From the IMG/VR virus record IMGVR_UViG_3300032087_004682: a stretch of 64,000 nt of DNA. One strand, given 5' to 3'. Positions 33,582 to 63,854 of this stretch are shown piece after piece (position 1 is the first letter of the stretch; every line of letters starts with the position of its first letter). The position numbers and the translations under genes were made by a program. Source of the stretch: an uncultured virus (IMG/VR IMGVR_UViG_3300032087_004682) (taxonomy: Duplodnaviria; Heunggongvirae; Uroviricota; Caudoviricetes). The notes below the pieces were generated by a model that was given only the letters and a program-made list of their open reading frames with translations, did not search any database and had not been told where the DNA came from.

Positions 33582-34516
33582 CGCATTGATGTAACCCTAG
33601 AGCCATATACATTCTGGAGTGAATTTCCTGCTCCCATTGCTGCTGCTTGTCTCCTTTGTATTTCTTCTTCCTCTGGAGTCATTGCACCTCTTTGGTATGG
33701 ATTGTAATTCTTGACTGAAGGATTAACCCCGCCTGTTAATTGATTATTGTACTGCACTGCAGCTTGTTGGTTTTGGGCGTATCCAGATGGTTGCCCTGCA
33801 AGATTCAATTGACTGCGTTGACCACCTATTGGCTGACCGCCACGAATAATGGTTGTTTGTGGTGCAGTAATAGGTCGAGTCTGTACTCCTGTCTGGCTAA
33901 CTCCACCAGATGATCTTCGTTTGTCCGAGTTACCCAAACCAAGTGCCTGACCAGTTTTGCCAATTTTTCCAATGGTATTAGCTATTCCTTTAAGGCCATC
34001 AAATGCTCCTCCACCACCACTTCCAGTTGGCATACCAGCCACTTCACCAAGTGGGGGTCCACCTGATCCGGGTAAACTCATTTGGGGAAGACCGCTTGCA
34101 TCAGTCATCGGTACTGACCCTGCGGGCGCAGCCGGATTAACCCAACTCGGGGTAACACCAGCTGATCCTATATTTGGCAATGCTCCACCAACCATCTTAT
34201 CAACCCCAGTGTACATTCCACCAAGTCCACCAATTAAATTACTACCAGCACCTAGTAACCCACTACCCAGTGAAGATACTGCTCCACCAATGTTACCAGC
34301 AGCTAATCCACCAATACCACCGGCTAAACCACTACCGATTGAGCCTACCATACCACCTAATCCACTAACTGCTGGCCCCAAAACACCACCAATTACAGGG
34401 ATTGAAGATGCCAACCCCCCAATTGCTCCCAATCCTGAAGCCAATCCAGCCCCAATTGCACCAACTCCTGTTGCGATTGCTCCACCTACTGCGGGTATTA
34501 CTGCTACAAATGCCAT
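33578..34516 (-). CDS. Gly-rich internal virion / DNA-ejection-like protein
   Basis: Long hydrophobic Gly-zipper N-terminus and Q-rich C-terminus. Confidence 0.6.
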   Translation of the reverse strand: MAFVAVIPAVGGAIATGVGAIGAGLASGLGAIGGLASSIPVIGGVLGPAVSGLGGMVGSIGSGLAGGIGGLAAGNIGGAVSSLGSGLLGAGSNLIGGLGGMYTGVDKMVGGALPNIGSAGVTPSWVNPAAPAGSVPMTDASGLPQMSLPGSGGPPLGEVAGMPTGSGGGGAFDGLKGIANTIGKIGKTGQALGLGNSDKRRSSGGVSQTGVQTRPITAPQTTIIRGGQPIGGQRSQLNLAGQPSGYAQNQQAAVQYNNQLTGGVNPSVKNYNPYQRGAMTPEEEEIQRRQAAAMGAGNSLQNVYGSRVTSMR

Positions 34517-34520
34517 GATC

Positions 34521-34991
34521 TTATGTGTTTTTGTGTTCTAGTTCTAATTCACTGAAGTCATCTGCCACTACTTCACGCTCAACTCCCTCAACTGTATCCT
34601 CCTGAGTGGCATGTACTGTATACCATTCAATATCCTCAAGTATCTCCATGAGTCGCTTAGTACCAGCTTGGGTAAAACCAAAATGGGGTGCTTCCAGTAT
34701 TTCCACCCCGTCCTCTGTCAAAATTTTTGCCTTACCCTTTAAAATAAAAAATGGATGGGTAACTTTGTGGATTTTTGTAGTAAATAACATCCCTTTAGGG
34801 GCTGATGCCCTACGAATGTACATACCAGATACAAAATGGTGATCCATTTCCCCACCAATCTTCTCCACCCAGTCGTTTCCTGTGATATGACCAGGGTTTT
34901 TCTTCCACATTGTTTCTAATTTAAGCATACCATCCTTAACATCCACGCCTTGCGTGATGCTTGAGTCTGAATTTTTCACTAATTCACCCAT
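34521..34991 (-). CDS. Cupin-fold protein
   Basis: HHF..GMYIR...KIHK..H....KG....APH...AGTKR......W.TVH. Confidence 0.7.
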   Translation of the reverse strand: MGELVKNSDSSITQGVDVKDGMLKLETMWKKNPGHITGNDWVEKIGGEMDHHFVSGMYIRRASAPKGMLFTTKIHKVTHPFFILKGKAKILTEDGVEILEAPHFGFTQAGTKRLMEILEDIEWYTVHATQEDTVEGVEREVVADDFSELELEHKNT

Positions 34992-35313
34992 GCTTACATT
35001 GTTACTATATTATTATTGTAACCTTATTTAGGTCAAGAGGCAATATAGATGTCTCACCCGTCATAAAAACCCCGTACAGGGGTGTATATGGGCTTTGTAG
35101 AGGGTATTGGAATTGTTTGTAGGCTCTGGAAACTTGAGAAAAGGGTTATATAACTACAAAACAAACTGAAGCAAAACCCCCCAAGCCCCCCCCTGTTACA
35201 CTATATTAATATTGTAACTTGTGTTTTATAAGTCGTTGTTTGGCAAAGGATTCTAAGGTTGTAAGTAGATTGCACAACGCAACTACACAAACAAAACCCA
35301 AAGTTATAAAATT

Positions 35314-35793
35314 ATGACAACTACAAAATCAAAACCTCGCAGAGCGAAAGCATCCACCAAGAAAGCAACAACCACAGAACCAAAGGTTGAAACTATCATT
35401 GAAACTATCACCACAAGTGACAAGTTGACGGATGCACAACGCATTGAAACAGCAAGACAATTACTCGCCCCTATTACTGAAGTAATGTTGCTTGCAGTTG
35501 TAGAGGATGAAGACGGCAACCCTGTTCTTGAACTACCAAGCAAGACAATGAGTTTTGCAACGGACTTAGCAGGAATAGCAAAAAGCCACTCCGAAAAAAT
35601 CAGACGCGACCAAGCGGGCAAACTGCTTGATTGCTTAATGGGTAGAACCACCATTGACGCTAACGGCAACGAGAAAGCCACAGGTTTAGGTTGCTACTCA
35701 GTCAAACAGGTTGATTTCCTACGCCAAGCACGAGGAAACAACAAACTCAGAGGAGCATCCAAAACCGGTTCTCAATACTCCTTTGGAGAGTAA
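35314..35793 (+). CDS. First early-region protein, unknown function
   Basis: 159-aa ORF with a K/T-rich N-terminus, following a divergent intergenic region. Confidence 0.6.
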   Translation: MTTTKSKPRRAKASTKKATTTEPKVETIIETITTSDKLTDAQRIETARQLLAPITEVMLLAVVEDEDGNPVLELPSKTMSFATDLAGIAKSHSEKIRRDQAGKLLDCLMGRTTIDANGNEKATGLGCYSVKQVDFLRQARGNNKLRGASKTGSQYSFGE

Positions 35794-36064
35794 TTAAATC
35801 AATAGTTTTTCCTTAGTTTCTATTCAAAAAACTAAGAATCTTTTTTCCCTTTTTTGACATAGTGTAAAGGCTCGCCAATGGGATAAGTAAGGAATGATTT
35901 GCGAATCATTGCCCGAAAAAGACATAGCGAAAGGTTGCACGACCAAAGATAAATTTTGCGAATCAATCCAATGGATTGGTTTGCCTTAGATGAATTGTGC
36001 CTAAAATAATTCACTTTTTTTTGAACTTTTTTTTGTTCACTTTTTTTTAAGCATATCGCTATCA

Positions 36065-37280
36065 CCGAGCAAGTTGTGCGTGGTGTACATGGTACACTCG
36101 GCAGCTTGGCTCGTACGCCACGCCTTGTGCGTGGTGTGGATCAGCAGATGTGTGTTGGATCAATATACCTTTGATTTATCTCTCACGACATTTGATATAT
36201 TTTTGGTAAGCTATCACTACGCCTATGCCATGCAATATGCACATGTTTAATGGTGGTCGCTTGTGTCCTATGCCTGCCTGTGGGTGGGGTAGTCCGCACG
36301 CATCCATACACCATGTAATGCGGTGGGTATGCTGTAAATATGCCCCGCTATCATTGCGACATGTACGTGCCGAGTCGGGTGGATCCGCTTGATGCCCAGA
36401 CCATATGGATGGTCGCAGGGTACAGGAATGACCTGTTCAGTCTCTTGAGTACATGTTGGTAGATCATTGGTAGTCGCCTAGACCATGACATGTCTGGTTC
36501 TACTCCAGATGCACCTCTATGTTGGTGTATGTGCCGAAGGGTATTGTGTATGTGTCCTACTTAGTAGGGGGTAATGATTTCCCCAGAGGATGTATCCCGT
36601 TGTGAGTCCGAAAGGAGCGGTTGGTCAGGGTTTACCGAAGTACGTAGCACGTCGACATGGGCGTGTGAAATCCCTGCAATGGGAGCCAATCGCTATACAA
36701 AACACATTGACGAGCCCGCACAAGATGTACCCACACCTTGGTGTCAGGTATACGCGCGTTGTCATGTGAAGTGTACACCTCCCGCATCGGGGAGGAGTAT
36801 CCAAATGCCATATGTATTCCAGGTGGAGTGGCGTCCGCACAGTCTATAGTTGCAAGCCTGGGCAGATATGTACCGCAAGAGGATATTAGTCAGTACCTTA
36901 CCCACTTAGTTGAGGGTGAACGCCTAACGCATATAAACAAAGCGTGTGCCTCTAGTCAGAGGTATGAGCAGATGTAGGGTCAGCTACCATGTGGTGTCGC
37001 CTGTGCGCCATGTGGTATGCACCCACGTATTACTACTCCCAGAGATATGACGAGATCTCTACACATGCCAGAGATTAAGTAGTAGTGCGTGCCAATCTAA
37101 CAACAGGCAGTGCCTCATCCCCAAACAGCTACGGCTGAGGTCGTAGTGGGATGCACCACTCGTACACCAAGCTCGGTGTGCGGGTGGTAATATTTCACAT
37201 CCAATAACCTCAACAAGGAGGAGTCATGTAAACAAAAAGCACAGTCAGGGGGTTTGGGTGCCCCCGCTTTTATTTTAACG
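36065..37280 (+). ncRNA. Candidate large structured non-coding RNA (~1.2 kb)
   Basis: No credible ORF; many stems containing G-U pairs, a GAAA tetraloop (36607-36616), multibranch helices; ends at a terminator. Confidence 0.6.
37248..37276 (+). terminator. Rho-independent terminator
   Basis: GGGGG-TTTGGGTG-CCCCC then GCTTTTATTTT. Confidence 0.65.
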
Positions 37281-37347
37281 TGCTATCACGCACACACATA
37301 TACATACAACCGAGGGGTGCCACCTCGTTAAACACGGCAGCAGTAAC

Positions 37348-37716
37348 ATGGATAATCCAACATACTTCGTAGTTCTTCTTAATGAAGGCTTTGATGAGCA
37401 AGGCAGATATGAACAAGTTGCCAAACTATCTACATCTATATGGAGTAACTCTTTGCGGGGTGACCGAGATCTCGTAGGAGATTTGCGGTACGATCATGTA
37501 GTTGTGGTGCAATGTGTATCTGACTGCGACCTTAAGACAGCCCTGGCAGAATGCAACATGGATAATCTGCCGGTTGACTATAATACTCACACCAATCTAA
37601 CAACAGGCAAAAGCCTCCGCAGTATATGCTCATTGGCATTTCTTGTGGATAAAGAGAGATGGGATGAGTACTGGAAAAATTCAGTATCGTGCATGGGGTA
37701 TGGAGCATTTGAATGA
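37348..37716 (+). CDS. Hypothetical early protein
   Basis: First ORF after the ncRNA tract; contains an 18-nt copy of an ncRNA segment. Confidence 0.55.
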   Translation: MDNPTYFVVLLNEGFDEQGRYEQVAKLSTSIWSNSLRGDRDLVGDLRYDHVVVVQCVSDCDLKTALAECNMDNLPVDYNTHTNLTTGKSLRSICSLAFLVDKERWDEYWKNSVSCMGYGAFE

Positions 37717-38105
37717 GCCCGCGCGACAAATGGAAACAAGGGCACAGGCAACAATACCACAAGCCAGTGCGTAACTGTCTCAGTCCAGCACGCTATGCCA
37801 CACCAAAGAGGCAAGCTCCACACGGACTGACTAACTCTTTCCCTCTACTCACAGAGGAGGAAGCTAAACGCCTCACTGAGGCACTAGATAAGAAAGGTAT
37901 AAGTAAATGAAGAATCGTATAACTTCGGCTACACCAGCCGACATCATCAATGGACCACTGCCTCCACACAGGCGAGTGGTAATAGTACCTAATGGTAAGC
38001 ATAGTCCTACCATTCAGGTATTATACTCACACAACCCTCCATCAAAGGAGGATGTTAAGTTTAAGAGTGCTCATAACCGTCAAGGTATGCCCACGGGGTG
38101 TTGAC

Positions 38106-38303
38106 ATGAGTAGCATGAAATACTTGGTCACTTATGTAATGTATGAGTGTCCTGATGTATTCACGGATCACTATGAAGCCTTTGATACCTTGGAGGATGC
38201 AATGGAAAGGTATGAGGAGCTATTAGAGTTATTCAAAGACGGCATATCCAAAGTATGGTCTGCCAATGTATCCAAAGTGTTAAGGAGCACTGATTACTTA
38301 TGA
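38106..38303 (+). CDS. Small hypothetical early protein
   Basis: MSSMKYLVTY...FDTLEDA; ATGA-coupled to the next gene. Confidence 0.5.
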   Translation: MSSMKYLVTYVMYECPDVFTDHYEAFDTLEDAMERYEELLELFKDGISKVWSANVSKVLRSTDYL

Positions 38304-39040
38304 CAACAACACACACAACATATGTAAATGGTAAGGCACATTACCCTTACTTCGTTAATCGCCCAAAGGGTGATGTACAAGCTGATGACTTCAAGCCATC
38401 CGATGTATTGTACTGCCGTGGCTTTAGGGTAGAACCTAAGGTTGGGTGCTGTGACAATGGACACAGGACTAAAGAGGAACGGGTAGTAGTATTGTATGAT
38501 GCAGCTACTGATCATGGGTTCTTACCTACTGTTATCAATAGACATGGGTATGAGTATGGAAGATCTATCCCTGCTGAGACACTAGATCAATTGAAGCCTC
38601 TAGTTAAGAAAGGGTATAGGATGTTTGATTGTGGCTATTTCCCACAGGGTGAACGGGCTGGTGACATGGTCTTGTATGGTCTGCCCAGACATCCTGACGG
38701 TTATAGAGGTGACATGCCACACACTTACCTTGAGATGCGGGAGGTCATGGAGGCACACTACCCTGCACTATTGGATGTTCGCCTTGTTGGTAAATTCTTA
38801 GCACTCGGTGGTGACATAAATGACACGGAGCATACCCAACTTGGACTGCCATGCTCACCATTGGTCTACATCCTACCATCATGGAAAACCGGTCCACACA
38901 TTGACATCATGTGGGAGGCAATGAAGTTACTACCCGAGACTACATACGAGGGCATGGTAATCAAACAGGAGCATCGTCCACAAGTGTACACCAATACACA
39001 GAAGGATAACTCATCATGGATCAAGATCAGATGGAGGTAG
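38300..39040 (+). CDS. Minimal ATP-dependent ligase-like nucleotidyltransferase domain
   Basis: VEPK (motif I), NRHG, YEGMVIK (motif IV), WIKIR (motif V); no OB domain; motifs III/IIIa degenerate. Confidence 0.6.
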   Translation: MTTTHTTYVNGKAHYPYFVNRPKGDVQADDFKPSDVLYCRGFRVEPKVGCCDNGHRTKEERVVVLYDAATDHGFLPTVINRHGYEYGRSIPAETLDQLKPLVKKGYRMFDCGYFPQGERAGDMVLYGLPRHPDGYRGDMPHTYLEMREVMEAHYPALLDVRLVGKFLALGGDINDTEHTQLGLPCSPLVYILPSWKTGPHIDIMWEAMKLLPETTYEGMVIKQEHRPQVYTNTQKDNSSWIKIRWR

Positions 39041-39052
39041 TTACACTTTATT

Positions 39053-39334
39053 ATGAGTAACAACACATACATAGAAGAGAAAACACCACCAAAAGGCAGC
39101 ACAGTAGTGCTGGAGTTTGAGTGGAATAACACTAGCGGGGTCGCATACATGCTGAAGTGGCTCAGTCATCAGGTACACAAGGGTACGCTACCAAGTAAGG
39201 TAGATCTGCCTGCTATCTATGACACACCACTAACGCACATCAATGTGTACCCCATTCAAGAACCACCCCTGATTGGCTATGACGAATATGGTCAACCAGA
39301 ACTAATAGAAAGGATTAAGCATGAGCTTAACTAA
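39053..39334 (+). CDS. Hypothetical protein
   Basis: Start codon lies inside a GTTAC-N12-GTAAC box. Confidence 0.5.
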   Translation: MSNNTYIEEKTPPKGSTVVLEFEWNNTSGVAYMLKWLSHQVHKGTLPSKVDLPAIYDTPLTHINVYPIQEPPLIGYDEYGQPELIERIKHELN

Positions 39335-39980
39335 ATTAAAACAAGCCACAACTAAGGTGGAGAAGAGTACGGATACAAAAGTAAATATCCACGAGGTAAA
39401 ACTCGATGACATGCTATCATTGGCACTACACCAGTTCAAGGAGGGCAAAGCCAAAGAGCAACAACTCAAGCCTATTATGGCTATGGGTAGCAGTGGCATG
39501 GGTGAACTCAAGGAGTTCGCTAAGAAGTACATTGAGGATAACTTCCATGGGTCTACCCCACCCGATCGCATCAAGCTGGTAACCAGCGATGGTGCGCAGA
39601 ATGTGGTGCTGTCTATATCTGACAAGCAGTATGGTAAGACCAAAATGGATCGCTACCAAACCCTGGAGAACGCAGAGGAGATCCGTGAGATTGTGGGTGA
39701 CGAGTGGTTCAACTCGCATGTCAACGACAACACACGCGTGACTATCCATATTGCTATGGTCAAAGACCCACAAGCTCGGAGTGAGCTAGAAGATGCACTG
39801 GTCAATATTGTACAGGAGTTTGAGAGTACAGGTAAAATACCAGCTGGCACTCTTCAAGTAGAGGAACGCTATGCCGTTAAACCATCATTCCATCATGACC
39901 GGTTTGAATTGGATCTCGCCCGTCACAATGAACTGTCCAAGGCAATTGGTGGCTGTGGACTAACCGCACCAAGACAATGA
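39321..39980 (+). CDS. Hypothetical protein
   Basis: 219-aa ORF in a coupled operon. Confidence 0.6.
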   Translation: MSLTKLKQATTKVEKSTDTKVNIHEVKLDDMLSLALHQFKEGKAKEQQLKPIMAMGSSGMGELKEFAKKYIEDNFHGSTPPDRIKLVTSDGAQNVVLSISDKQYGKTKMDRYQTLENAEEIREIVGDEWFNSHVNDNTRVTIHIAMVKDPQARSELEDALVNIVQEFESTGKIPAGTLQVEERYAVKPSFHHDRFELDLARHNELSKAIGGCGLTAPRQ

Positions 39981-42632: not shown

Positions 42633-45202
42633 TTAATCAACACCAAGATGTCTGGTTGACTGCCAATGGCAATCTAGCAACCAGCGTAAAGTACATTCCC
42701 GACGGACACACCTCAGAGGAGAGAGCCATGTATGGTAAACTTCGTGAGGTACTGCGCCGTATAGCGGGTTTCACGCCAATGCAGTTGGCAACTATGAAAG
42801 ATGACTATGATCGACTGGAGTTCGTGTACCATGAGCCAGCGGTTATCATGTCAGATGACACACGCAAAGCAATCAAGCAGGCATTAGTGGAGGGGAAGGT
42901 TGTTCCCCCACCATTGATGCCACCAACAGACTATGAGCTTATCGCATACATTGATGATGTGAAAAAGCTCAAGGCTGTTGAGACTGTGACCAATCAATAC
43001 CTATCCATCACCAAGGGTCAGGTGTATGAGTTCTGGCATGATGATCCCAAGTTTGTGGAAAAGTTCGCTAGACGATACAGGGATGGTGACCTACACGACT
43101 GTGAACTCAAGGGCAAGGACAGTGCGTTCAAGTTCCTTGATGACATGGGCACTGAGGTTACATTCCGGCAGCACTACTCAGAAGACGCAAGTGACCATGA
43201 GCTGGATGAGGCATTGATCTGGGATTACTTTGAGAAGCCTCATGTAAAGTGTATAGCTGAGAAGTATCCCGATCAGTATGAGTCCAACATGGAGACACTA
43301 ACCATGATGGAAATGCTGTATGGATCCAACCCTGACAATCCATGGACATTCTATGAGGCTCAGAAAAAGTATATTGCTTCAATGGCTATACCTAAATCTG
43401 CACTCATATCAGCAGAGACTGGATGCGGTAAGTCGCTCATGGCTATTGCTATTACAATGTGCAAGGGTCCTGTCCGCACACTACTGGTTGCACCCAAGGG
43501 TACTGTTAAGGGTGAAGAGGATCAGGAGGCAGCACAATGGCTCAAGGAGTATCAGGTCTTTGATCCAGATGCTAAAGTGTACAAGATATTCAGCCGTAAG
43601 GATTACAAGGCTATCCTTAAGGCGAACAATGGTACATTACCACCCGGTACTTATGTCACCTATGACCATGCGTTCTTCAAGACCAATGCAATTGAGGACA
43701 TACCCAGGTCATGGAAGGACAATCGTCGTGGCATGACGGCTGAGGAGTGCTTCCGTACCGCCATGGAGATACCCAAAGATCAGTATGCCCCACCCATTGG
43801 TTCCTACATCAGTGACGGAGTAAGCTGGGAATGTGACGGTTATGTCGAGGGTCTGGGTCAGACACGCAATGGTATCAAGTGTATTGCACGACCATGCTTG
43901 GCGCAGGAGATCGGACAGCAGTGGCAGATGATGATCTTGGATGAGGCACACCTGATGTCCAATCCTTCATCTATCATCACGCAACGCATACTAAGGATGC
44001 AACCAGAGTACAGGTTTGCGCTTACAGCTACGCCTATACCAAACAAAGTGGAGAACATCTTCCCGCTTATGGGTTGGTTGTGCGTTCCTGGCTGGTACAA
44101 GGGTGATGTACAAAACCCACGCTGGCCATTCAACAACAGCCCGAAGGGTCGATCTGACTTCAATCAGTTGTTTGTGGCTTATGAGTATGACCTGGTTGCG
44201 CGGATGAAGAACAAGTCCTATGCACCCAAGATGTCACCAATCATTGGTCAGACTGGTAGGTTGCTCAAGTTGATGAACCCCACCAAGGGTCACATCTCCA
44301 AGGAGCAATGTAATCCTGACATGGTACCATGTGAGATCATTGAGACACGGGTGCCAATGGGTGAAGAGCAAGCTAGGATGTACAGCTTCTTCATGAACAT
44401 TGACAATGTCATGGTGACTAACAATCACATGATGAAGGCTGGTGTGCAACTCAACTACCTACGAGGTGCTTGTGCTGCTCCAACATCTGGCCAGCATGCT
44501 GAGTGGTTGCGTAAGGCAACTGAGGTGACTGACTCTATGGGTAATATCTTACAGGAAGGCTGGGTACCTAAGTCTCAGTTCACTCCTAAGATTGTTGCTA
44601 CACTAGAGACAGCACTGGATTGCATACAGCGTGGCGAGCAAGTCCTTATTGTGTACTGCCGTACTGAGATGGGTAGCGAGTTGGCCAGTAGGTTCCACAA
44701 AGCTGGTATCAGCTACAGTCGTATTGACTCAACGGTCAAGCACCATGCAACTGAGGCATCGCTGTTCAAGCAAGGCAGGACGAATGTTATGCTCATGGGT
44801 ATCAAATGTGCCCAAGCGTACTCATTCAGCAATTGTCGTAACCTGATTATTGCCAGCCTTGAGTGGAGCTATGGTGTATTCAACCAGGCATTGGGTAGAG
44901 TGTATCGACTCAACAGTCCCAAGCCGGTCAAGGTTTATGTCATCCTCATGCAGAACTCCATTGAGGAGGCTATGTATGACAAGCTAGGTAGTAAGGAGGA
45001 CACAGCTAAGATCTGCCTGCATGGTGAGCGTGTACCAAGAAACACAATACCAATGGATGCGAATGAGATATTCGCTGACCATCTGGGTATATTCAACAAT
45101 GGCTCACACAATACGGTGAGCGAGTATCTGTGCGAAGAGATGTGGCCCGACCTTCGTACAAAGTTTGAAGAGGCTATTATGAACAAGGAGGTATTAGTAT
45201 GA
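42629..45202 (+). CDS. SNF2-family (SF2) helicase
   Basis: ETGCGKS, ILDEAH, LTATPIPN and QALGRVYR motifs. Confidence 0.88.
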   Translation: MINQHQDVWLTANGNLATSVKYIPDGHTSEERAMYGKLREVLRRIAGFTPMQLATMKDDYDRLEFVYHEPAVIMSDDTRKAIKQALVEGKVVPPPLMPPTDYELIAYIDDVKKLKAVETVTNQYLSITKGQVYEFWHDDPKFVEKFARRYRDGDLHDCELKGKDSAFKFLDDMGTEVTFRQHYSEDASDHELDEALIWDYFEKPHVKCIAEKYPDQYESNMETLTMMEMLYGSNPDNPWTFYEAQKKYIASMAIPKSALISAETGCGKSLMAIAITMCKGPVRTLLVAPKGTVKGEEDQEAAQWLKEYQVFDPDAKVYKIFSRKDYKAILKANNGTLPPGTYVTYDHAFFKTNAIEDIPRSWKDNRRGMTAEECFRTAMEIPKDQYAPPIGSYISDGVSWECDGYVEGLGQTRNGIKCIARPCLAQEIGQQWQMMILDEAHLMSNPSSIITQRILRMQPEYRFALTATPIPNKVENIFPLMGWLCVPGWYKGDVQNPRWPFNNSPKGRSDFNQLFVAYEYDLVARMKNKSYAPKMSPIIGQTGRLLKLMNPTKGHISKEQCNPDMVPCEIIETRVPMGEEQARMYSFFMNIDNVMVTNNHMMKAGVQLNYLRGACAAPTSGQHAEWLRKATEVTDSMGNILQEGWVPKSQFTPKIVATLETALDCIQRGEQVLIVYCRTEMGSELASRFHKAGISYSRIDSTVKHHATEASLFKQGRTNVMLMGIKCAQAYSFSNCRNLIIASLEWSYGVFNQALGRVYRLNSPKPVKVYVILMQNSIEEAMYDKLGSKEDTAKICLHGERVPRNTIPMDANEIFADHLGIFNNGSHNTVSEYLCEEMWPDLRTKFEEAIMNKEVLV

Positions 45203-48014: not shown

Positions 48015-48542
48015 ATGCCTAATTGGTGCCACAATAGCGGAGAAATAGTAACCCCAAGCTGGAGGGTAGTTACTGATATATTAGAACACACTCACGCAGG
48101 AACATTACTTAACTGGATGGTTCCCATGCCTGACAAGATATTCAAGGGCAACCTTGGAGAAGCAGAGCGTAAGAAGTACGGACACGATAACTGGTATGAC
48201 TGGGCAATCGCCAACTGGAGTACCAAGTGGGATGTATGCGATGGCATTGCGTATGCCCACAAAGAAGGTGATGAGTATTCAGTTGAGTTGTCGTTCAGCA
48301 CAGCGTGGTGTCCACCTGAGCGTGCCTACGAGACCCTGTGGGAACGAGACAACATCACCAGGATAAACATGTACTATGAGGAGCCCGGTATGGAGTTCAA
48401 AGGATACTGGGTAGACGGGTACGATAAGCCTGAAGAATGGAGGTACGGTTATTGTGACGGCTGTGAAACGGAAGTAGCAATAGAGAATGAATCAGACTGC
48501 TCAGTCTGCGGTCAAACAACAAGGGAGTTAACTGAGTCATGA
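48015..48542 (+). CDS. DUF1281/YubB-like (MPNWC) protein
   Basis: MPNWC.N...WYDW...NW.TKWD...F.TAW.PP...Y.EPG..F.G. Confidence 0.75.
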   Translation: MPNWCHNSGEIVTPSWRVVTDILEHTHAGTLLNWMVPMPDKIFKGNLGEAERKKYGHDNWYDWAIANWSTKWDVCDGIAYAHKEGDEYSVELSFSTAWCPPERAYETLWERDNITRINMYYEEPGMEFKGYWVDGYDKPEEWRYGYCDGCETEVAIENESDCSVCGQTTRELTES

Positions 48543-49399
48543 AGGAATACTTCACCGGCACTGACCGCTTCAACAGGGCACACAAGCTGTCAGGTGCAAT
48601 GTTATCCGCTTATGCGCTGAGGGGGAGGAAAGACCCTCTCAGTGTGAGGCGGTGGATGCTGGATAGTGGAGCGTTCACTCAAGTCACAAAGTTTGGTGAT
48701 TTCATACAAACCCCTGAAGAGTATGTACGCTTAGCCGTACGCTTCCAAGACCAGGGCGACCTAGCTTGTATTGCCACTCAGGATTATATGTGTGAGCCAA
48801 GTGTCATTGCAGAACTGCAGTCACAAGGAAGGCAAGCATCCGTCAGGATCCATCAACGCAAGACCGTGGAGAGGTACATACAGATAATGGATGAGGCTGA
48901 GAAGCAAGGACTCAAGGTTCCTGTTATGCCTGTCTTGCAAGGGTGGGAGGTTGATGACTACCAAGATCACTTGATTATGTATAGCCGTATGCTTTCTGAC
49001 CTGAAGTATCAAAGGTGCAGAAACTTATGGAAGACTCCATTCCTTGATAAACCGCACTACTATGGAGGTGAACTGCTAAATGCAGATCAATGGATAGGGA
49101 TAGGATCTACATGCAAGCGTAATAACAATCCAGAAGTAGTATCTCAAATACTGGATCAGCTTAGTGAGTGCATGGGTGAGCTTGCGTTCACTAATTCAAG
49201 AATACACTTGTTTGGATTCAAGAAGACGGGACTAAGGCAAGCTAACATCAAGGACAGAATCTACTCTGCTGACTCATTTGCCTATGACTTTGCTGATCGT
49301 ATGGCAGGGAAGAAACGCACTACCAAAATGCGTATCAAATCAGCCCAGCGATTCAGTAGGTCAATCATCCACAACAATGTTCAGACAAGTTTTTTCTGA
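48539..49399 (+). CDS. TGT/DpdA-like transglycosylase
   Basis: LDSGAF, QDYMCEP, PVLQGW, GIGS.CKR, IHLFG.K and SADS motifs. Confidence 0.75.
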   Translation: MKEYFTGTDRFNRAHKLSGAMLSAYALRGRKDPLSVRRWMLDSGAFTQVTKFGDFIQTPEEYVRLAVRFQDQGDLACIATQDYMCEPSVIAELQSQGRQASVRIHQRKTVERYIQIMDEAEKQGLKVPVMPVLQGWEVDDYQDHLIMYSRMLSDLKYQRCRNLWKTPFLDKPHYYGGELLNADQWIGIGSTCKRNNNPEVVSQILDQLSECMGELAFTNSRIHLFGFKKTGLRQANIKDRIYSADSFAYDFADRMAGKKRTTKMRIKSAQRFSRSIIHNNVQTSFF

Positions 49400-52497: not shown

Positions 52498-55400
52498 TTA
52501 ATATAAGTCTAGCGCCATTAACCTTGGGTCCTTTCTGACGGAAGGCATCCTTTTTGGTTCTATGCCATACTTATAGTACAGCATAGCTTCTGTTTGTCGC
52601 TTAGTGGGGGTTGATACTTCAATCATACTGGAGTATTGGTCGTGTGCCTGTAGGTATCTCATTACCTTAGCAGCCTCATCTTCGTCCATTAATCCAATTA
52701 GCTCCTGAAGCGTTTGTTCAGTCATGGCACCATCAGTAATGTTTTTGGTAACCATTCTTCTCTTAAATGCGTTTCGTATCTCTCGCTCTGGGTTAGCTTT
52801 CCCTTCTTCTCTCAGAACATCAAGTGCGTCTTGGTATGCATCCTGAAATGCTTTCGTGTCATAATTGTACGCAGCCCGCTCCATCTGTCTAAGATTGATC
52901 GAGAAAGGTGTTGGTCTGTACCCTCCTTTGGATGGAGCCTTTAGTGGCAGGCCCATACCCCATGCGTATTTCTTGATTATGTTTCTTACTCCAATGTAAT
53001 CAGCTACTCGCCTCTCTGCTATGTCTATGTCAAACATTGCAGTTGTGGCATCTATGAATTGGATCGCAGAATTACCCCCGACACCATACAGGATCGGTCT
53101 CATTACATTGTGGTAATCCATTTCACCCTGATGCATCCAGTTGCCCATAGCATCATAAACATTTTTAATCATAGACCATGCGAATATTCTGCTATCTAGT
53201 GAAAATTCTTTAGCCGCTCCGTATGGATCTGCCTTACTAAATACACTATTGGCTACATCCATACCCATACCATAGGGCACACCAGCCTTAGCTAGCCTAG
53301 ATGTTATTGCATATATGGAAAAGTTTGGATCCGCTTCAGCTGCCATGAAGGGACCGACCACCGGAAGTAATGCCCATGGAGTGATTGGTGGTAAGTTGTT
53401 TGGTTTCTCTAGTACCTCATCGTCATACCAGTCTACAAGCATAGCAAAGGCTAAACCAGCAGGAGTGTATACGGCAGATACTAAGCCAAGATACTTCAGA
53501 AAAGCCATCCATGTGGCACGATCCGTTCTGGCATCTTTACCAAAAACATAGTTTGAGTTGCCTTGTAGCACACGATTGTCCCGTGCCATTTTCCAGAGAG
53601 GCCAACCAAGGAATATACCAGCGTACTTCCATAGGTCATTTGTATAAAGTGCTGCGGGTTTTGCATTAAATCCCTCACCAGATACTTCATTCATCGCCAT
53701 CTGGTTAATCAGCTTACCAATGCTTGCCTCTATGACTGGCGTATTGGGGTCATTCTTTTTTCTTTGCACAAAGTCAAAGGCAAGCCTGGAGAGATTGGGA
53801 GCGCCTACGCTTTCAAGAAGGTTATTCATTTGATTGAATCCATCCTTCTGTCCTACAAAAAATTCAAATACCCCTGCACCCAGACCAAGTTCTTCGGCAG
53901 TAAAATTATGAAAGTTCTGCAGCCCCTGATTCTCTATAACTTTTGCAATCTTCAATACCTCAGATTCAACAGAGAAGATCGCACCCACCCCAACAGCATG
54001 GTTGATGTTTGCATTGATGTACGGAAACATACCTACCAGCGGAGTCTTCCAATCAACGGGCGATCTGAGTCCTTTCTTCTTGGACTTCCTGTTGTGCATA
54101 GCCATCTTCTTCATGAAGCGTATGCCCTTCTTTGCGGTGGCTGAGTCCATGCCAAAGCCAGTAAGCTCACCACCAGAACCAACTTGAGATATATACTCTT
54201 TCCATGTCAGATCAGACTCAGAGTTTTGAAAGTGTGTATTGGCTAGGTACTCGGCATAGATATGGGATCTGCCTATATTGATTCCCATTGCCTCAAGGAT
54301 ACCACCGAATGTTTGGTCAATGAATGTAGTAAACGCCTTGGTTGTTGCTTTGAGCGACATACCATTTAATCCATGGTACGCCATCGGGAACTCAGTCATG
54401 GATAGACCCTGCCAGAATGATGACTTAGGATTGTTTAGTACAGCTAGTGATTGCAACCCAAGTAACTCAAGTGGCACATTAGCATCCTTGAATGGGCCAG
54501 CTACATTTCCGCTTCCATAGTATTTATTAAGGTGGTCAAAAATGATTTCCATTTCACCAATGGCAGCCGAGTTTGCAAATAAGTCTTCAAAGGTTGCCTC
54601 GGGAGTTCTGCCTTTTGTGATCTCTGGGCGATTACGAAGCAAGTCATACACTCTTTTACGCACAGCCTTACTGTAGTCACTAAGGACACCATCTGCTTTG
54701 GCTCCTGTTGCTTCTGCAATTAGGCCAAGAAATACAGCTTTATCATTACTCCATCTTTCATCAGCTTTAGCCCTAACAGCATTAGCATTTGATCCACCAC
54801 GACCAAATACTGAGGATGCAATCATCATCTGCAATCTTACCGCACTGGTTATCTCGTCATAGCTATCGTAGTAGAAGTACTCCTTAGGTAGTGTGGCTGC
54901 ATGGTTTCTGGCATCTAATGACCTTGGGCTATTCATTAGCATGTTCTGCGTTTTGTGTGCATCATGCTGGGTTTGAATATCCATGAAAGCAGAGTGGAAT
55001 CTATCGTACTTTCTTTGGAACTGTTTAATCATACTGAAGTACCAGTCAGCACGATCCTGATCCGTTGATTCATCAGTGGCGAAATCCTGGAATACAGTAT
55101 CCAGGAATGACACAAAAGCATCCGTGCCAGATTGATTGCGAGTTGTGTTACGCCATACAGCATTTACATATGCATTGCCCATCTCCTCGCCATTCGGTCC
55201 GTAGAACACAGACCTTCTGTTGTCGCTCTTTAGGTAGTTTCCTGCCCAACGTGTTACAACCTCCTCAGAGAACAATTCCTTGACTGCATTGGTTACAACC
55301 TCCAGGTCGTACCTACCATCCAACTGCATGAGTCTTTTATATATACCATCCTCATTAGATTTGGATGGTACCCACTTACCTGAGAACTCTTTATTTTCTG

Positions 55401-58400
55401 GTGTCGGTGCTTTCAGTATTGAAATAGCATTGGCAATCGCCCCTTCGTTGAGTACGCGAGGGATCGTAGCGTAGCCTAAATCTACCGGGCGTCTATAGAA
55501 GTCTACGGTCTCTCCGTCAATGAGGGATTGAACCTTAAAGTCATCCTTGATTCTGTTGCCAAGAACATTGAGGTTGTAATTAGCCTCAAAGTCTCTGGCA
55601 TCTATGGTTCTGCGGATTAATGTAACTAAGGCTTTCTTAGTTTCTGCATTGAGTTTGGACTTGTCAGGGACATTCCCATTCTCCTTGAGATGTTTCCATA
55701 GTCCATTGACTGCCTCTGTCTCATTGCCATCATGCTCGGGGTGATTATCAAAGTACCACCATACATCTTGGTAAAATGTAGTGAACATCTCTTTACCATT
55801 CATGCCCATCTTCTCGAGCAAATTGATGTAAGCTACATTCCACTTCTTAGCATAGTATTGTACATCGGAATTTACATCCCTGAACAGCGCAGCGGTCCGT
55901 GCCAGCATACCACCAAGTTTCTTACCTTCATAACCCATGCGGTTTAACCTGGCATTGAGTGACTCTATTCCTGCCATCCATGCTTGCTTTCGTACAGTGA
56001 AGTATTGATCTCCTACTGGTTCATACAATGCACGATTGGCTTGTTCCTTCATGGCATCATACCATGGCTCTTGTTGGAATGAGTTCTTGGCTTTGTCGTC
56101 CTTCAGGAACTCTAATGTGGATGCGTTTAAGCGTACAAACTTATCTCGGTCTACCATCTTTCCGTTCTGGTATCTGATGGTAAATCTTCCTAACTTCCAT
56201 TGGTTACGTACTGGGCCAGAGGTTACATACTTTCCGTTCTCTCCCTTTCTTCTCTCCATGACAAGCATGGTTGCTCCCTGTCTTATGTCCACAGGCTCAA
56301 GCTCACCAAGTGCTGTACGAAGTCTTGCTTCTCTGGCTAACAACAGCCCATCAATAGCTTCGTGAAGTTTCTCATATTGTAGATCACGACCACGCTCATT
56401 CTTAACCTTGATGGATTGTATCTTTGTTTCGGATAACTTCTTTAGTAGACTACCTACCCTGCCCTTTGATCCTGACTCTTTGTATGCGTTCTCTGCTTGT
56501 TCTTTTGTTTCTGCTGATGCTATAGCTTCAACATCCTCAAAGAATGTATTCTTTTCGCCCAGGTCTTTTAGTGTGGCAATCCTGTACAATGTATAAAGAT
56601 CACGGCTATATACTGTACGATCCGCAAACACGTGCATAGCGTACTCACTGCCCTCTTTCTTGAGCCAATCAAACCTCTTGTCCGTGGATGTTTTGATACG
56701 CTCTACAATTTCTTTCTTCCCGAGTGTTTCCACAATATCGCTCATCTCAATGATTGCTTCCATTGTGTCCTTCACTTTGTTCTTGAGGTCAGGCATCTCA
56801 CGCAATGCTTTAACATCTGCAACCTCCACATTCATGCCCTCCAGCTTCATTGACTCCAGAAGCTTTTCAATCCTTGGGACATTCATGGAGTTCACCATCT
56901 TCTCTGCCATTGCTTCCGCTAGCTCTACGGGGGGTGTCAGCTTACGGGATCTGGCTGCTGCCAGCAGTCTCTCAAACTCTGCCACAACTGCTTTAGCGTG
57001 TACAAGCTGATCGGAAATATCTGCCTTCTTTATCCTGGCATTATTTCTTGCACGACTGAGGAATCCAACAGCATCAATCATGGCACGATCCCTTCCTCTA
57101 CGGTTCATGCCTTGGTCATCAATGCTTATCTTGGATAACTCATTGACCTCTTTACCCAGACGCTTGGAGTAGTCCCGAAGATTCTTCTCTATATTCATAC
57201 CCGATTGCTCGTTTATAAACTTCTTCAGTCCGTCCTTACCTTTATATGTATCTGGTAAATTATTGTTCTGTGCTAGGTTGGTAAATACCTTAGTTAACTG
57301 ACGCACTACCTCATTGTTTGCAGCGACTGATGCGGTGTGACCAACCATGGCAGCTTCATCAGGTTTAGGCGATGGCTTGGGTGGCATCTTAACCTGAGAG
57401 TACCTAGCTTCAGTTAAGTAATTAACATACCTTGAAATACTGGCCTTAAAGTCTGGTGTTACTTCAAGGTTCAAAAGGAACTCATCCTCATCCATTATGG
57501 CAACAAGCACCTCGGCGGGTGTATCAAATCCAAAAAAGTCCTCCCTGCCTAATGCTCTAAGAAAGTTCTTCATACCCGGATCCATGTCGGTACTCTCAAG
57601 CATTTCATATACTTCACTAGATGGGGTATCCTCATCAAAGACCTCAAGGTAATCATCATATAGTCTGTGCCTGTATGACTTAAGTATATCTAGTGACACC
57701 TCTGTATTACTTGGACCGTAGTCTCTCATCTTATGAGGGACATACTTATCCTTGTTATCAAATCGGTCAGGTAGATCTATCTGTGAGTATCTACGATTCT
57801 TCGCCCAGTACCTACGGTGGGCTTTCTCCATCTCTGTTCTGAGTCTGGCTACATTGAGTCCGAGTCGATTACCATAGTCATACGCAATCTGTCCGTCCAT
57901 CTCCTCACTACCTGTGACAATCAGCACATCTGCTACCTTCTGGTATACCTTGGGGTCGGACTTCTTGATCCTAAACATTTGCCAGAATGTAGGAAGATCA
58001 CTCGGTGCTTCCTCCACCTTCTGGTCAAAGTCAAATAACATCTGCTGGGCACGGATGGTTGCGTCAAATGGTAAGTTGCCCATGTACTTACCTAGCGGAT
58101 AAGCAGTCTTGGTTATTACCTTCAGGTAGTTGTCTGCTTGGTCAAGTAGGTTGGGTTGTACGCCCACCATCCTGGCAATCAATCTCCTGATCCATTGCCA
58201 TACAGTTTTAAATACACCTTGCTTCAGTCCCAGACTCTTTGACATCTCGGGTGTCATCCGAGTCTTTTTAAGTAAGTGCCTTAATTCATAGTTACTGGAC
58301 AGCTCTGCAAAAAATTCTTCTACGGATGACAATGAGTATTCACGGACATTTACACCAAAGTCGTTATTGGATTCACGAAGTGCGGGAATAATTACATCTC

Positions 58401-61400
58401 GTACATTCCTGTACACCTGAGCCATGAGTTCGCCATCCTTTGTGTACTTGGAAAGCTCTTTGATTAACTCCTTATCCTTAGCGTCAAATGCGTACCCTAC
58501 CTCCATTCCTAACCTTACAGGGACATGGGTTATTTCGTGTACTATTAGGTTAGCTAATGTTTCGTCTGCATTAACAGTTTGCTTCGTGTCATTGTAAAAT
58601 GTGTCGGATATTGCGATTTCATTTTTACCGGGCATATACACAGCAGCAGTCATGTTACCCTCACTTACCCTTGCATACCTACGAAACTCTTCCCATGGCA
58701 TGAACCTAACTCTTACATTCTCCAGGGATGGGTGTCCTCGCATTAAGGATGCCCACATAGTTAAAGCGCTACCGTTCTTATATTTGTCTGTTACTTTGGA
58801 TATAATGTTACCCAATGTATAATTAGCATCAAATGTACCTAATGGGTCACCACTACCTATGAAGTCTTTAATAGCTTGCTTGGCTATCTGCCTAAGCTCT
58901 GGGTATTTCTCCAGAGGATGTTCCTCTCTCGCCATTACATCCACCTCAGTTGCCATACTGCGTTGATGGTCAGCCTCAATTAGTTCTGGTGTAACTGGTG
59001 CCTCTCGGATCTCAATTGGTTTACCCGTGGCAAGATCGGTAAGCTCATCCACCATTGGAATCATTGAGTGTCTGGCATCCTGCTCAGTTGGGCGCGCCAT
59101 CCATGTGGTCTGCAACTTCTCTGGAACTATAGCCTTACCAAAGAATCCTTGAAGGAGATTGGCGTAGTTTGGTATCTCCTTCTCTAGTTTCTTAAATGCC
59201 TTATCAATCTGCTTGTTACGAGCTTCTACATTAGCAGTTTTATTGATTGGGGTTTGGTCTTTAAATATCTGTACTGGGTCCGTGTTATCTAGGAACTCTT
59301 TGTCCTTTGCGTCCTTGCCCTTGCTCCGCATCTTGCCAGCTGTGTCACGACCTACGGTAGCGGTATTCATTACATCCTGAAGAAGCTTGCCAGCCTCCTG
59401 GGAATCCATGCCCTCATTGACCAAGAGACGTTTAATGAAAGCTGCTAGTCTAAATGGATCCCTACGTGCATTATCTACAGTCTTGTCGTTAACTTCTGCT
59501 GGTATAGCACCGCTGAATATTGCATGATCCTGTGCGATCTCAGCGATCTTGGCATACCTTGTCTGCCTATTAACTCTAGTTAAGTCAGCTACACTTAAAG
59601 ACTTATCGGTGATTATGTCACCCAGTGCATCATGTAGTTCACTAATTGGGTTTGCAGCGTCTGAAAAGAAATCTTCTAAGGCTTCATTAAGCCTTATTAC
59701 AGAAGTGTTCTTGGTCAACTGATCTGTCCCGAGGAGTTTCATGCTCAAGTCGGTCAGTCTTTTCTTTTCTGCCCGAGACATGTTCTTGACGCTTGCTAGA
59801 TCTATTGGCTGCTCACCATCCTTGATGATATTACCACCCATCTGGGTACCCTTAGATCTATCCAGTAAGATATTAAACTCAGCTATATCATTAACAAGAT
59901 TAAGTAATTGATTAAACTTGGCGTATCCTTGACCAGCAACCCCTGACATCTTTTTATACAATGTATACGGACTGGTTTTATCAAAGGTCTCCCTCTTAAT
60001 ACCCTCTTCAATTTTGTTACCTTGCTTAACCTTAGTTAAATACCTTGCCTTCTTCTGCTTCGCTAGGATTTCATTATACAGGCGAGTAAGTTCCTCATGT
60101 TTTACAAACTGATTATCCTCATCAATAAAACCATGCACTTCGGTGCCTTTAGACTTTTCTGTATCCTCTTTTATCTTGGTATTTATTGCCTCAAACACAG
60201 CCTCGATTGGCGCATCTACAATAAATAATTCTTTGGCTTTCTCCATAGCCTTGGAGCCCGCCTTATACTTACCCTGCTCCTCTGACTTAAATACATTAGT
60301 ATATGTTTCAAATATACCTAGATTATTCTTTTGATCGTACTTTCTTGCCGGTACGAGCATCTGCTTGTAGGAGTCACCACGCTCCCGCATAGCAAGAAGT
60401 TCAGATGCGTCTTTGCTTATGACATCAGGCTTCTCAATCTGGGTATCTCTCGTTAACCCCTTCTTCTCAAACTCTCTTTGAATCTGTCTTAACTTCCTTA
60501 ATTCAGGCTCATAGTTAACACTCTCCTCCATGCCAGAATCAAAGGTGGTGCGATCCACTGGAGCAGGGAGTCCATCCACTAATGTCTCACCTACATATCC
60601 ACCATATGCTAATTCTTTTCTTAATGATTCTGCGTCATCAAAGTATATGTCATTTGGTTTCTTATTGACCTTATCTTGCATGACAAAACCAACGATTGAA
60701 TGAGTCCCGCCCTTGTCTTGGTTGACCCATTCTGACATCGGCTTGAACTTATCAGAATTAGCATCATATGCGGTAATATTACTTCCGTTCTTTTTTACAG
60801 ATACTACACGAAAGCTGCCAGCTTGCTCGCTTGATTGGTCGTCATTCCTAAAGATCGCAAGTGCCTTGCCCCCACCTTTATCTCCAAACTCAATTTCTCC
60901 AACCCCAATCCCAGACCTAAAGAAATCCCCATCTACATTCTGGTCTAGCTTCTCATCAAAATATACTCGGTCCAATACAACACTATCGGGAATGTTGTTA
61001 TAATCCGTGTAGTCGTCTCGGGTAAATTTTGGTGTAAGATCTATCTCCAGATCACCAATCCTTATGCCATCAAGAGCTTGTGGGGATCCATATTTCTCTA
61101 GCTTCAGATCCTGCACGACATCCCCAGACTCTAAGTGTACATATCCATCCTTCTTGAGTATGGCATTCTTGAGCCTAGTATCTGATCTGATCTCTGCCTC
61201 AAGGTCTTCTTTACTTTCAAACTTTACCTTCTTGAAGCCCTTGCGAGAATTACCTAAGCGAAAAGCTAAGGTGGTTTGTGCCATATCCACATCGGGAAAT
61301 ACATCAGCTAAATCCGTAACCTCATCAACTGGGGCACTCTTACGCTTGGGTGATTTCTCAGTAGGTTTACGCTTCTGCTTGGGTTGTGGTTTGGTAAAGA

Positions 61401-63447: not shown

Positions 63448-63854
63448 TATCTTTTCCTTCCGAAGTGCCACCTTTCCTCAGGGGGTGAGGTTAAGGCATT
63501 GATTGCGCCTTTTGTTACATCCTTAAGAAAAGCTTCAGTTGCTTCACCGCCAACTATTGAGCCTGCGATCCCAGCTCCCACTTTCCCTATGCCTGTGACT
63601 AGAGGATTCGGTGTTGCTGGGAACGCTTTAAAACCCAGCATGAATCCACCTATGTTGCCTGGTGTTTGAGATATAGCTTCTGCAGCTACATCGGTTTTTG
63701 TGCGTATGTCTTCTTCAGGCACTATTTCTGCACGCTGATCCTTGGCGAAGAACTGATACAACTTGCCCAGTTCTTCTTGTGTTGGTTGCTCGCCAGCAAA
63801 CTCAACTTCTACCACTTCTTTTGTAAACGGATTCTCTACTTTTGATATAGGCAC
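63447..63854 (-). CDS. Hypothetical virion-associated protein
   Basis: Gly-rich hydrophobic segment; coupled to the giant gene. Confidence 0.5.
   Translation of the reverse strand: MPISKVENPFTKEVVEVEFAGEQPTQEELGKLYQFFAKDQRAEIVPEEDIRTKTDVAAEAISQTPGNIGGFMLGFKAFPATPNPLVTGIGKVGAGIAGSIVGGEATEAFLKDVTKGAINALTSPPEERWHFGRKR

Follow-up and report, generated by a model that had tools for sequence, protein, structure and literature searches.

A plus-strand tract of ~1.2 kb in an uncultivated phage lineage: probable gene for a very large structured RNA of an uncatalogued class

The RNA gene at the edge of the early region of phage phi29 encodes pRNA, a molecule of ~170 nt that works as a multimeric structural RNA. 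Much larger RNAs have been described from other phages. GOLLD and ROOL are phage-borne RNAs that form RNA-only cages (PMC12286853), and the Vibrio phage ICP1 has as its most abundant transcript an RNA of ~800 nt that lies in a ~1-kb gap without open reading frames (ORFs) (PMC7567579). Likewise, long non-coding RNAs of phage K have been likened to such RNAs (PMC9241854). Here, a tract at positions 36065-37280 on the plus strand of a 64-kb stretch of DNA from an uncultured virus of the Caudoviricetes (IMG/VR record IMGVR_UViG_3300032087_004682; the whole 64-kb stretch was analyzed and is referred to as the window) is examined. Quite likely, ~36066-37275 (+) forms a gene of its own that encodes a very large, structured, non-coding RNA from an uncatalogued class, with a folded core of ~1.14-1.15 kb and a unit of ~1.2 kb once a terminator tail is included. 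The tract is apparently a new class of very large structured phage RNA, the case being solid for structure and strand and thin for expression. Base-pairing of the ~1.15-kb plus-strand element is under selection, and no reading frame is conserved in it. As judged from the comparison of two sequences, the element is made of two domains with opposite conservation, a 5' domain of ~650 nt that is kept by sequence and a 3' domain of ~450 nt that is kept by pairing, with fast-evolving stems.

At ~1,150 nt, the element differs from the ~170-nt pRNA of phi29 in size and shows no sign of a packaging role; it is also roughly double the size of ROOL. Like GOLLD, it is a phage-borne, very large, multi-domain non-coding RNA from aquatic metagenomes with two unequally conserved regions, and GOLLD has no known function either (PMC12286853). 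The phage context typical of GOLLD is present in the window in the form of terminase, portal, and tail-fiber genes. However, the tract spans ~1.15-1.2 kb versus just over 800 nt for GOLLD, and its sequence-conserved part is the 5' one, whereas the universally conserved region of GOLLD is described as the 3' one (PMC12286853). Moreover, GOLLD often, but not obligatorily, sits near tRNA islands, whereas ARAGORN found 0 tRNA or tmRNA genes in the 64-kb window. The likeness to ROOL is that of a phage-associated, ornate RNA for which no protein partner is known, ROOL being abundant where it was measured (PMC12286853); the tract differs from ROOL in that it has no match in Rfam and no neighboring tRNAs in the window. 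The likeness to the ICP1 RNA lies in an ORF-less gap between gene modules, ICP1 being a lytic phage without tRNAs and its RNA having no known function (PMC7567579). However, no sequence relation was found (distant-mode blastn with the tract as query matched none of 50,697 phage records), and the two are likened by gap, size, and setting only.

No Rfam 15 family (all 4227 models searched) reached its gathering score anywhere in the 64-kb window, and at E values up to 10 over 35500-37600 nothing was found inside the tract, the only two weak matches lying upstream at 35937-36050. A diverged homolog of the tract, termed L047 and described below, had no Rfam family match either. Because neither sequence matches Rfam 15, the tract is not GOLLD, ROOL, or another catalogued class, a negative that for MISL, OLE, HEARO, and raiA holds without a check that each named class has a model in the library. 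A sequence-only reading of this DNA had offered two possibilities, membership in a known class of the GOLLD/ROOL/MISL type or a new large RNA class. The former was not borne out by this cmscan-type search, and the latter is supported by plus-strand folding, by substitutions in L047 that preserve structure, by 26 of 92 pairs changed on both sides, by the lack of a conserved ORF, by a terminator, and by presence in RNA libraries. Two further candidates were considered and rejected: an antisense regulator of phage genes is argued against by complementarity of the tract to the rest of the window, which is not above chance, and a CsrB-type or ToxI-type repeat RNA is argued against by the lack of an internal tandem array in the tract.

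The gap without credible ORFs that had been noted from the letters alone is real: no ORF of at least 100 aa lies within 35794-37347, and the tract stays closed when TGA, TAG, or TAA is read as a residue. Its longest ORF on the plus strand has 91 aa (36574-36849). If the tract served to make one or more small proteins, these could come, for example, from the 91-aa ORF or from others of 79 and 58 aa; 16 ORFs of at least 40 aa overlap the tract, and a Shine-Dalgarno (SD)-like AAGGAGG stands ahead of an AUG at 37226. However, the 91-aa ORF becomes one of 58 aa with a different tail in L047, the 58-aa ORF of the window is split or frame-shifted there by a 1-nt insertion, and the two longest ORFs had no PHROG match. 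Further, the SD-led AUG meets a UAA at once, and coding leaves the compensatory changes reported below unexplained; small proteins are hardly credible as the purpose of the tract. Conserved peptide coding in the short ORFs was the outcome that the sequence-only reading had named as speaking against an RNA, and no conserved peptide was found when the ORFs of the tract were compared with this one homolog.

The whole tract is predicted to fold on the plus strand at -447.5 kcal/mol, compared to -413.9 ± 9.2 kcal/mol in 40 dinucleotide shuffles (z -3.6), and the minus strand gives a z of +0.07 against its shuffles. For the 3' half (36721-37280), z is -4.97 and 0 of 100 shuffles were as good. Twenty 400-nt sense-strand windows from elsewhere, used as controls, had a mean z of -0.43 (sd 1.27, minimum -3.25) and minimum free energies (MFEs) of -76 to -130; three 400-nt windows of the tract had MFEs of -136 to -142, below all 20 controls, with z values of -1.75, -1.12, and -4.79. 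Folding better than dinucleotide shuffles was thus obtained for the whole tract and for its 3' half but not for the 5' half alone. Frequent G-U pairs had been taken to favor a plus-strand RNA, and the predicted folds agree, with 66 of 410 pairs (16%) being G-U on the plus strand versus 29 of 358 (8%) on the minus strand. The arms of several long stems resemble direct repeats (CCAUGUGG type), and because they pair only via G-U, such stems form on the plus strand only.

The homolog L047 is one metagenome record of 1039 nt that came from a single metagenome scan with a search pattern that drew on the window and on a diverged variant observed in sequencing-run contigs. It starts at the equivalent of window position 36068, 2 nt inside the first helix, ends with the closing helix, and carries no coding flank; since it begins within that first helix and its last bases pair with its copy of 36764-36774, it spans the folded core. 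Identity to the window is 94.5% over 36068-36718 and falls beyond this point to ~60-70%, with islands of identity. When the 37 substitutions of L047 were mapped onto the 5' domain as folded from the window alone, 11 were unpaired, 16 pairs were retained, including 3 in which both partners had changed, and 6 pairs were broken. The same substitution types placed randomly 5000 times broke 12.2 ± 2.3 pairs (observed 6, P 0.0056) and gave 0.38 double changes (observed 3, P 0.0034), and with the 5' domain folded on its own the corresponding values were P 0.007 and 0.0002. In the minus-strand control, the corresponding P values were 0.80 and 0.28 with the full tract and 0.08 and 0.07 when the 5' domain was folded by itself; because the minus-strand test is not significant, the structural constraint is assigned to the plus strand.

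For the 3' domain, covariance models were used because MAFFT misaligns the stems. Model R1 (36921-37095) was built from the window sequence with a structure chosen after the window and L047 folds had been compared, and model R2 (36775-36922) was built from the window sequence only, with the window-only MFE structure. L047 was recovered by R1 at 85 bits (E 3e-21) and by R2 at 40 bits (E 4.5e-8). Of the cells in the 48 pairs of R1, 93.5% are paired and 15 pairs are double-changed, compared to 24-50% paired and 0-5 double changes when partners were slid by 1-3 columns; for the 44 pairs of R2, 92% of cells are paired and 11 pairs are double-changed, against 35-47% and 0-3 in the slid controls. In total, 26 of the 92 modeled pairs of the 3' domain are changed on both sides yet still pair in L047. 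Covariation among homologs, which had been proposed as a check, is therefore present as compensatory changes, but these come from one homolog only.

A total of 20 sequencing runs from 14 studies (seawater, estuary, freshwater, and salt marsh) contain part of the stretch, and 6 of these are metatranscriptomes. Contigs of three RNA runs (two studies) and of one DNA run were compared with the 5.5 kb at 34000-39500, the parts of which that are uncovered by RNA-run contigs are not to be read as silence. RNA-run contigs were confined to 36015-37123, except in run X17, where a weak match of 172 nt and a scrap of 18 nt lie at 39035-39341, and the DNA run covers the flanks of the tract too. This offers a hint that the tract is transcribed, and the metatranscriptome check suggested earlier went that far: contigs of three RNA runs lie nearly all inside the tract, but at contig level only.

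A number of points weigh against an RNA gene of this kind. Unpaired in L047 are 7 of the 92 modeled pairs of the 3' domain and 6 predicted pairs of the 5' domain. Every covariation count rests on two lineages because L047 is a single homolog sequence, the 3'-domain alignments are biased towards pairing because the covariance model fits sequences to its structure, and the R1 structure was picked in part after L047 had been seen. The sigma-70 promoter scan upstream of the tract found only a weak 9-of-12 site at 35981-36010. It should also be noted that the RNA-library evidence is at contig level, without strand, ends, or abundance, that DNA carry-over is possible, and that the runs were chosen using this same stretch. 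Finally, the 3' part of L047 alone reaches a z of -1.11 against shuffles, and the 5' half of the tract (36065-36720) a z of only -1.34, with 3 of 20 shuffles as good. The latter value would suit decayed or spacer DNA that is functionless and that folds well by chance due to its G+T-rich composition, as would the -414 kcal/mol at which shuffled plus-strand sequence itself folds; because this is much better than the minus strand, composition does explain part of the stability. Spacer DNA is nonetheless highly improbable: the 5' 650 nt are 94.5% identical across lineages, compared to a ~9% difference in nearby coding DNA of a related population (79/846), substitutions avoid breaking pairs, and the helices of the 3' domain are kept via 26 double changes while its loops are invariant.

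The setting of the tract bears on two other explanations. The window holds a phage-like gene set that includes a large terminase, a portal, a tail-fiber adhesin, a DnaB-type helicase, two integrases, and a 3657-aa ORF, and further genes encode an SNF2 helicase, RadC, and DpdA. Leftward structural genes stop at 34991, rightward genes begin with a 159-aa ORF (35314-35793, +), and the next ORF of at least 100 aa starts at 37348 (+). The tract had been placed at the head of the early region; because the 159-aa ORF is the first rightward gene, the tract is not at the very head of the rightward block, and gene content is what suggests the label "early". Its orientation matches that of the downstream genes, its terminator ends just ~72 nt upstream of the ORF at 37348, and the sigma-70 scan found no strong promoter in between (a 9-of-12 site at 37329-37356 only), as would be expected of a cis-acting element, namely a long structured 5' leader of the block that begins at 37348 with a gene resembling PTH2-type peptidyl-tRNA hydrolases, with the terminator serving as an attenuator that would control read-through and would be expected to have a competing antiterminator fold. 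However, 1.2 kb far exceeds known leaders and attenuators, L047 starts and ends with the folded core over its 1039 nt and has no coding flank, and the contigs from RNA libraries stop short of the downstream genes, the last being a weak point; overall, such a leader is rather doubtful. 

A DNA-level element at the junction of gene modules, with the hairpins forming in DNA and any transcription serving priming or being incidental, could be an origin of replication, a site for packaging, or a signal in single-stranded DNA. It would be consistent with a position within ~1 kb of the leftward/rightward divergence, where cumulative GC skew has a local minimum, with T-rich 13-mer repeats just upstream, and with two related viral contigs (L001 and L002) that end near the junction, ~250-330 nt past the tail-fiber gene; G-T pairs are possible in single-stranded DNA too. 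However, GC skew simply tracks gene orientation across the window, and a ~1.1-kb multibranch structure with a long-range closing helix and compensatory conservation on one strand is unlike origins. Moreover, the unit ends in a terminator, RNA libraries contain the stretch but not its flanks, and no iteron array lies inside the tract. An element acting as DNA is thus very unlikely, and the stand-alone RNA gene is the reading on which the following description is based.

The anatomy of the proposed RNA was drawn from the plus-strand MFE fold of the window plus an independent fold of L047, and its elements, with the repeats that precede them, are as follows.

36010-36048 (+): three T-rich 13-mers, TTCACTTTTTTTT, TGAACTTTTTTTT, and TTCACTTTTTTTT, 12-14 nt apart (two exact copies and one with 2 mismatches, unique to this place in the window); possibly a promoter-upstream element
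36066-36720 (+): 5' domain of ~650 nt, conserved in sequence (94.5% identity to L047)
36066-36113 (+): 5' terminal hairpin, -23.8 kcal/mol, a value that none of 200 shuffles reached (z -3.9); the sole L047 substitution in it, 36101 G>A, turns U-G into U-A
~36607-36616 (+): CC/GG pair around a GAAA loop in the MFE fold
36616-36694 (+): multibranch closed by AGCGGUUGGU/GCCAAUCGCU in the MFE fold; its inner hairpin at ~36648-36665 has two compensatory pairs (36649 A>G with 36664 U>C, and 36651 G>A with 36662 C>U)
36758-36774 with 37190-37205 (+): long-range closing helix of the 3' domain in the MFE fold (36764-36774 with 37190-37200, 11 bp; 36758-36761 with 37202-37205), which recurs in the independent fold of L047, where 700-709 pairs with the terminal bases 1029-1039
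36778-36795 (+): hairpin CCUCCC/GGGAGG, which is CCUCU/AGAGG in L047, with one C-G to U-A double change
36796-36887 (+): long irregular arm with an invariant CCAGGU/GCCUGG helix, from folds and covariance model; in its four helices, 7 of 24 pairs are double-changed and 4 of 24 are unpaired in L047
36898-36919 (+): hairpin with a conserved loop, CUUAGUUG, identical in both lineages, and one A-U to G-C double change
36927-36965 (+): two hairpins with one double change each, the first with a conserved 11-nt loop, AUAUAAACAAA, the second with a stem wholly different in L047
36977-37024 (+): hairpin whose inner stem of 13 bp is formed by two CCAUGUGG-type arms, the pairing of which depends on G-U; a helix of 13 pairs within it has 2 double changes, 4 single changes, and 2 pairs unpaired in L047
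37025-37090 (+): 13-bp helix (37025-37037 with 37078-37090; 8 of 13 pairs double-changed and 1 broken in L047) that encloses a hairpin at 37041-37060 (3 of 6 pairs double-changed, 0 broken) and the conserved single strand ACAUGCCAGAGAU (37063-37075)
37105-37188 (+): three hairpins, including a 14-bp stem at 37155-37188 (z -5.0), with no counterpart in L047
37208-37231 (+): CCUC/GAGG hairpin that holds the SD-like AAGGAGG, followed by an AUG and an immediate UAA
37235-37275 (+): intrinsic terminator, a GGGGGU/GCCCCC stem (37248-37265) followed by a T-run, -19 kcal/mol

All but one of the helices listed in the sequence-only reading are present in the plus-strand MFE fold, the exception being a CAGGG/CCCTG pairing in place of which the MFE fold prefers other inner hairpins; the terminator expected after the 14-bp stem is indeed there, at 37248-37275 with its T-run. 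The order of elements is the same in the independent folds of the window and L047, from the closing helix through the CCUCCC/GGGAGG hairpin, the CCAGG/CCUGG arm, the CUUAGUUG hairpin, the AUAUAAACAAA hairpin, the hairpin with the wholly different stem, and the long hairpin to the long helix that encloses a small hairpin and the ACAUGCCAGAGAU single strand. The invariant unpaired elements of the 3' domain are CUUAGUUG, AUAUAAACAAA, ACAUGCCAGAGAU, and an ACGAG loop. Because they occur in the window lineage but lack a counterpart in L047, the hairpins at 37105-37188 look like a lineage-specific expansion.

Several sequence features were observed in and around the element. The SD-like motif in the tail of the RNA is strong: AAGGAGG, a 4-nt spacer, and AUG-UAA (37214-37231, +) lie between the closing helix and the terminator, and the motif is partly sequestered by the CCUC/GAGG hairpin. 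An SD-like motif stands upstream of 24 of the 56 genes of the window, and the gene at 45199 is preceded by the same ACAAGGAGG. An exact 18-nt direct repeat, CCAATCTAACAACAGGCA, is found at 37092-37109 in the 3' domain of the RNA and, 500 nt away, at 37592-37609 in the next gene, where it encodes HTNLTTGK; the relative P0004 of that gene's protein (see below) differs precisely there (HRNM-AGR). The repeat may have been left by recombination or gene conversion involving the RNA and this gene, and a shared binding site is possible. The motif GCTATCAC occurs at 36058, 36210, and 37282 (+), that is, before the start of the RNA, within it, and after the terminator (3 copies in 1.3 kb), and in 5 copies in the whole window compared to 2.05 expected; it may be a promoter-like motif, although 5 of 100 shuffles also reach 5 copies and the count alone is not significant. 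CATG is present 14 times in 36065-37280 versus ~5 expected and CATGT 9 times versus 1.2, and L047 has 18 CATG in 1039 nt; we read this excess as a by-product of self-complementary helix arms rather than as a protein-binding motif.

Further relatives of the tract were sought by several routes. Searches of viral_contigs with five neighboring proteins (of 122 aa, 246 aa, and 219 aa, P0001, and the 857-aa helicase) returned no relatives, and a search with the tail-fiber adhesin returned 46 loci, in which the tract is absent (0 hits by nhmmer and 0 by model R1); two close adhesin loci among them, L001 and L002, stop before the tract. DNA patterns gave 0 matches in viral_contigs plus one chance match within an ORF (L048), and in genome_contigs 0 matches and then 3 chance matches (L049-L051). 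The 122-aa protein encoded next to the tract (37348-37716, +) has only one relative in a set of 5.8 billion proteins (P0004, 88% identical) and no Pfam, PHROG, or PDB sequence match. It resembles phage PTH2-type peptidyl-tRNA hydrolases in language-model features (0.91) and in an Atlas structure model (TM 0.70-0.76); because its AlphaFold model is poor (pLDDT 43) and a PDB sequence match is lacking, the PTH2-like assignment remains an atlas-only lead.

Elsewhere in the window, the terminase has no cultured relative above 30% identity. A DpdA-like gene at 48539-49399 (+; Pfam PF23859, 1.2e-26) suggests that the phage DNA may carry 7-deazaguanine modification, and the 3657-aa ORF at 52498-63471 (-) has no PHROG or Pfam match at E values up to 0.001. 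A palindromic box of ~25 nt, GTTACA...TGTAACA, is located at 35194-35218 (-), with a second, similar copy just upstream of the start of the tail-fiber adhesin (34991). Both boxes are shared with L001 and L002 despite differing DNA around them, and one copy is followed by a G-run; the box probably serves the leftward late genes as an operator or promoter.

If the tract is a stand-alone RNA gene, a discrete and probably abundant transcript would be made during infection. This RNA could act in trans as a scaffold or decoy, a role that we put forward tentatively, as a plausible one that falls somewhat short of being probable. The invariant loops, displayed on a helical frame that drifts, would be functional contact points, whether for tertiary or quaternary RNA-RNA contacts of the kind known from GOLLD and ROOL or for a partner from the host or the phage, and action via a peptide or via antisense pairing with other phage genes would not be expected. 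That the RNA is a self-assembling multimer is unlikely. A bolder version, and just as much of a long shot, is that it may found a new class of giant phage RNAs (its ~1.15-kb core being larger than GOLLD), with the invariant loops of the fast-evolving, helix-preserving 3' domain either building a higher-order assembly made of RNA only or binding some part of the host's translation apparatus. A link to translation has two weak leads in its favor, namely the PTH2-like next gene (atlas only) and the motif resembling a ribosome-binding site with AUG-UAA in the tail of the RNA.

Large ornate phage RNAs such as GOLLD and ROOL were recently shown to build RNA-only cages, the purpose of which is unexplained, and, to the best of our knowledge, such classes number only a handful. 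A further example that is unrelated and larger, and that stems from an uncultivated phage lineage sampled by 14 studies in seawater, estuary, and freshwater, would widen the set available for comparison, and the layout of the tract, with a conserved 5' domain and a 3' domain in which stems change and loops are fixed, marks the nucleotides for functional testing.

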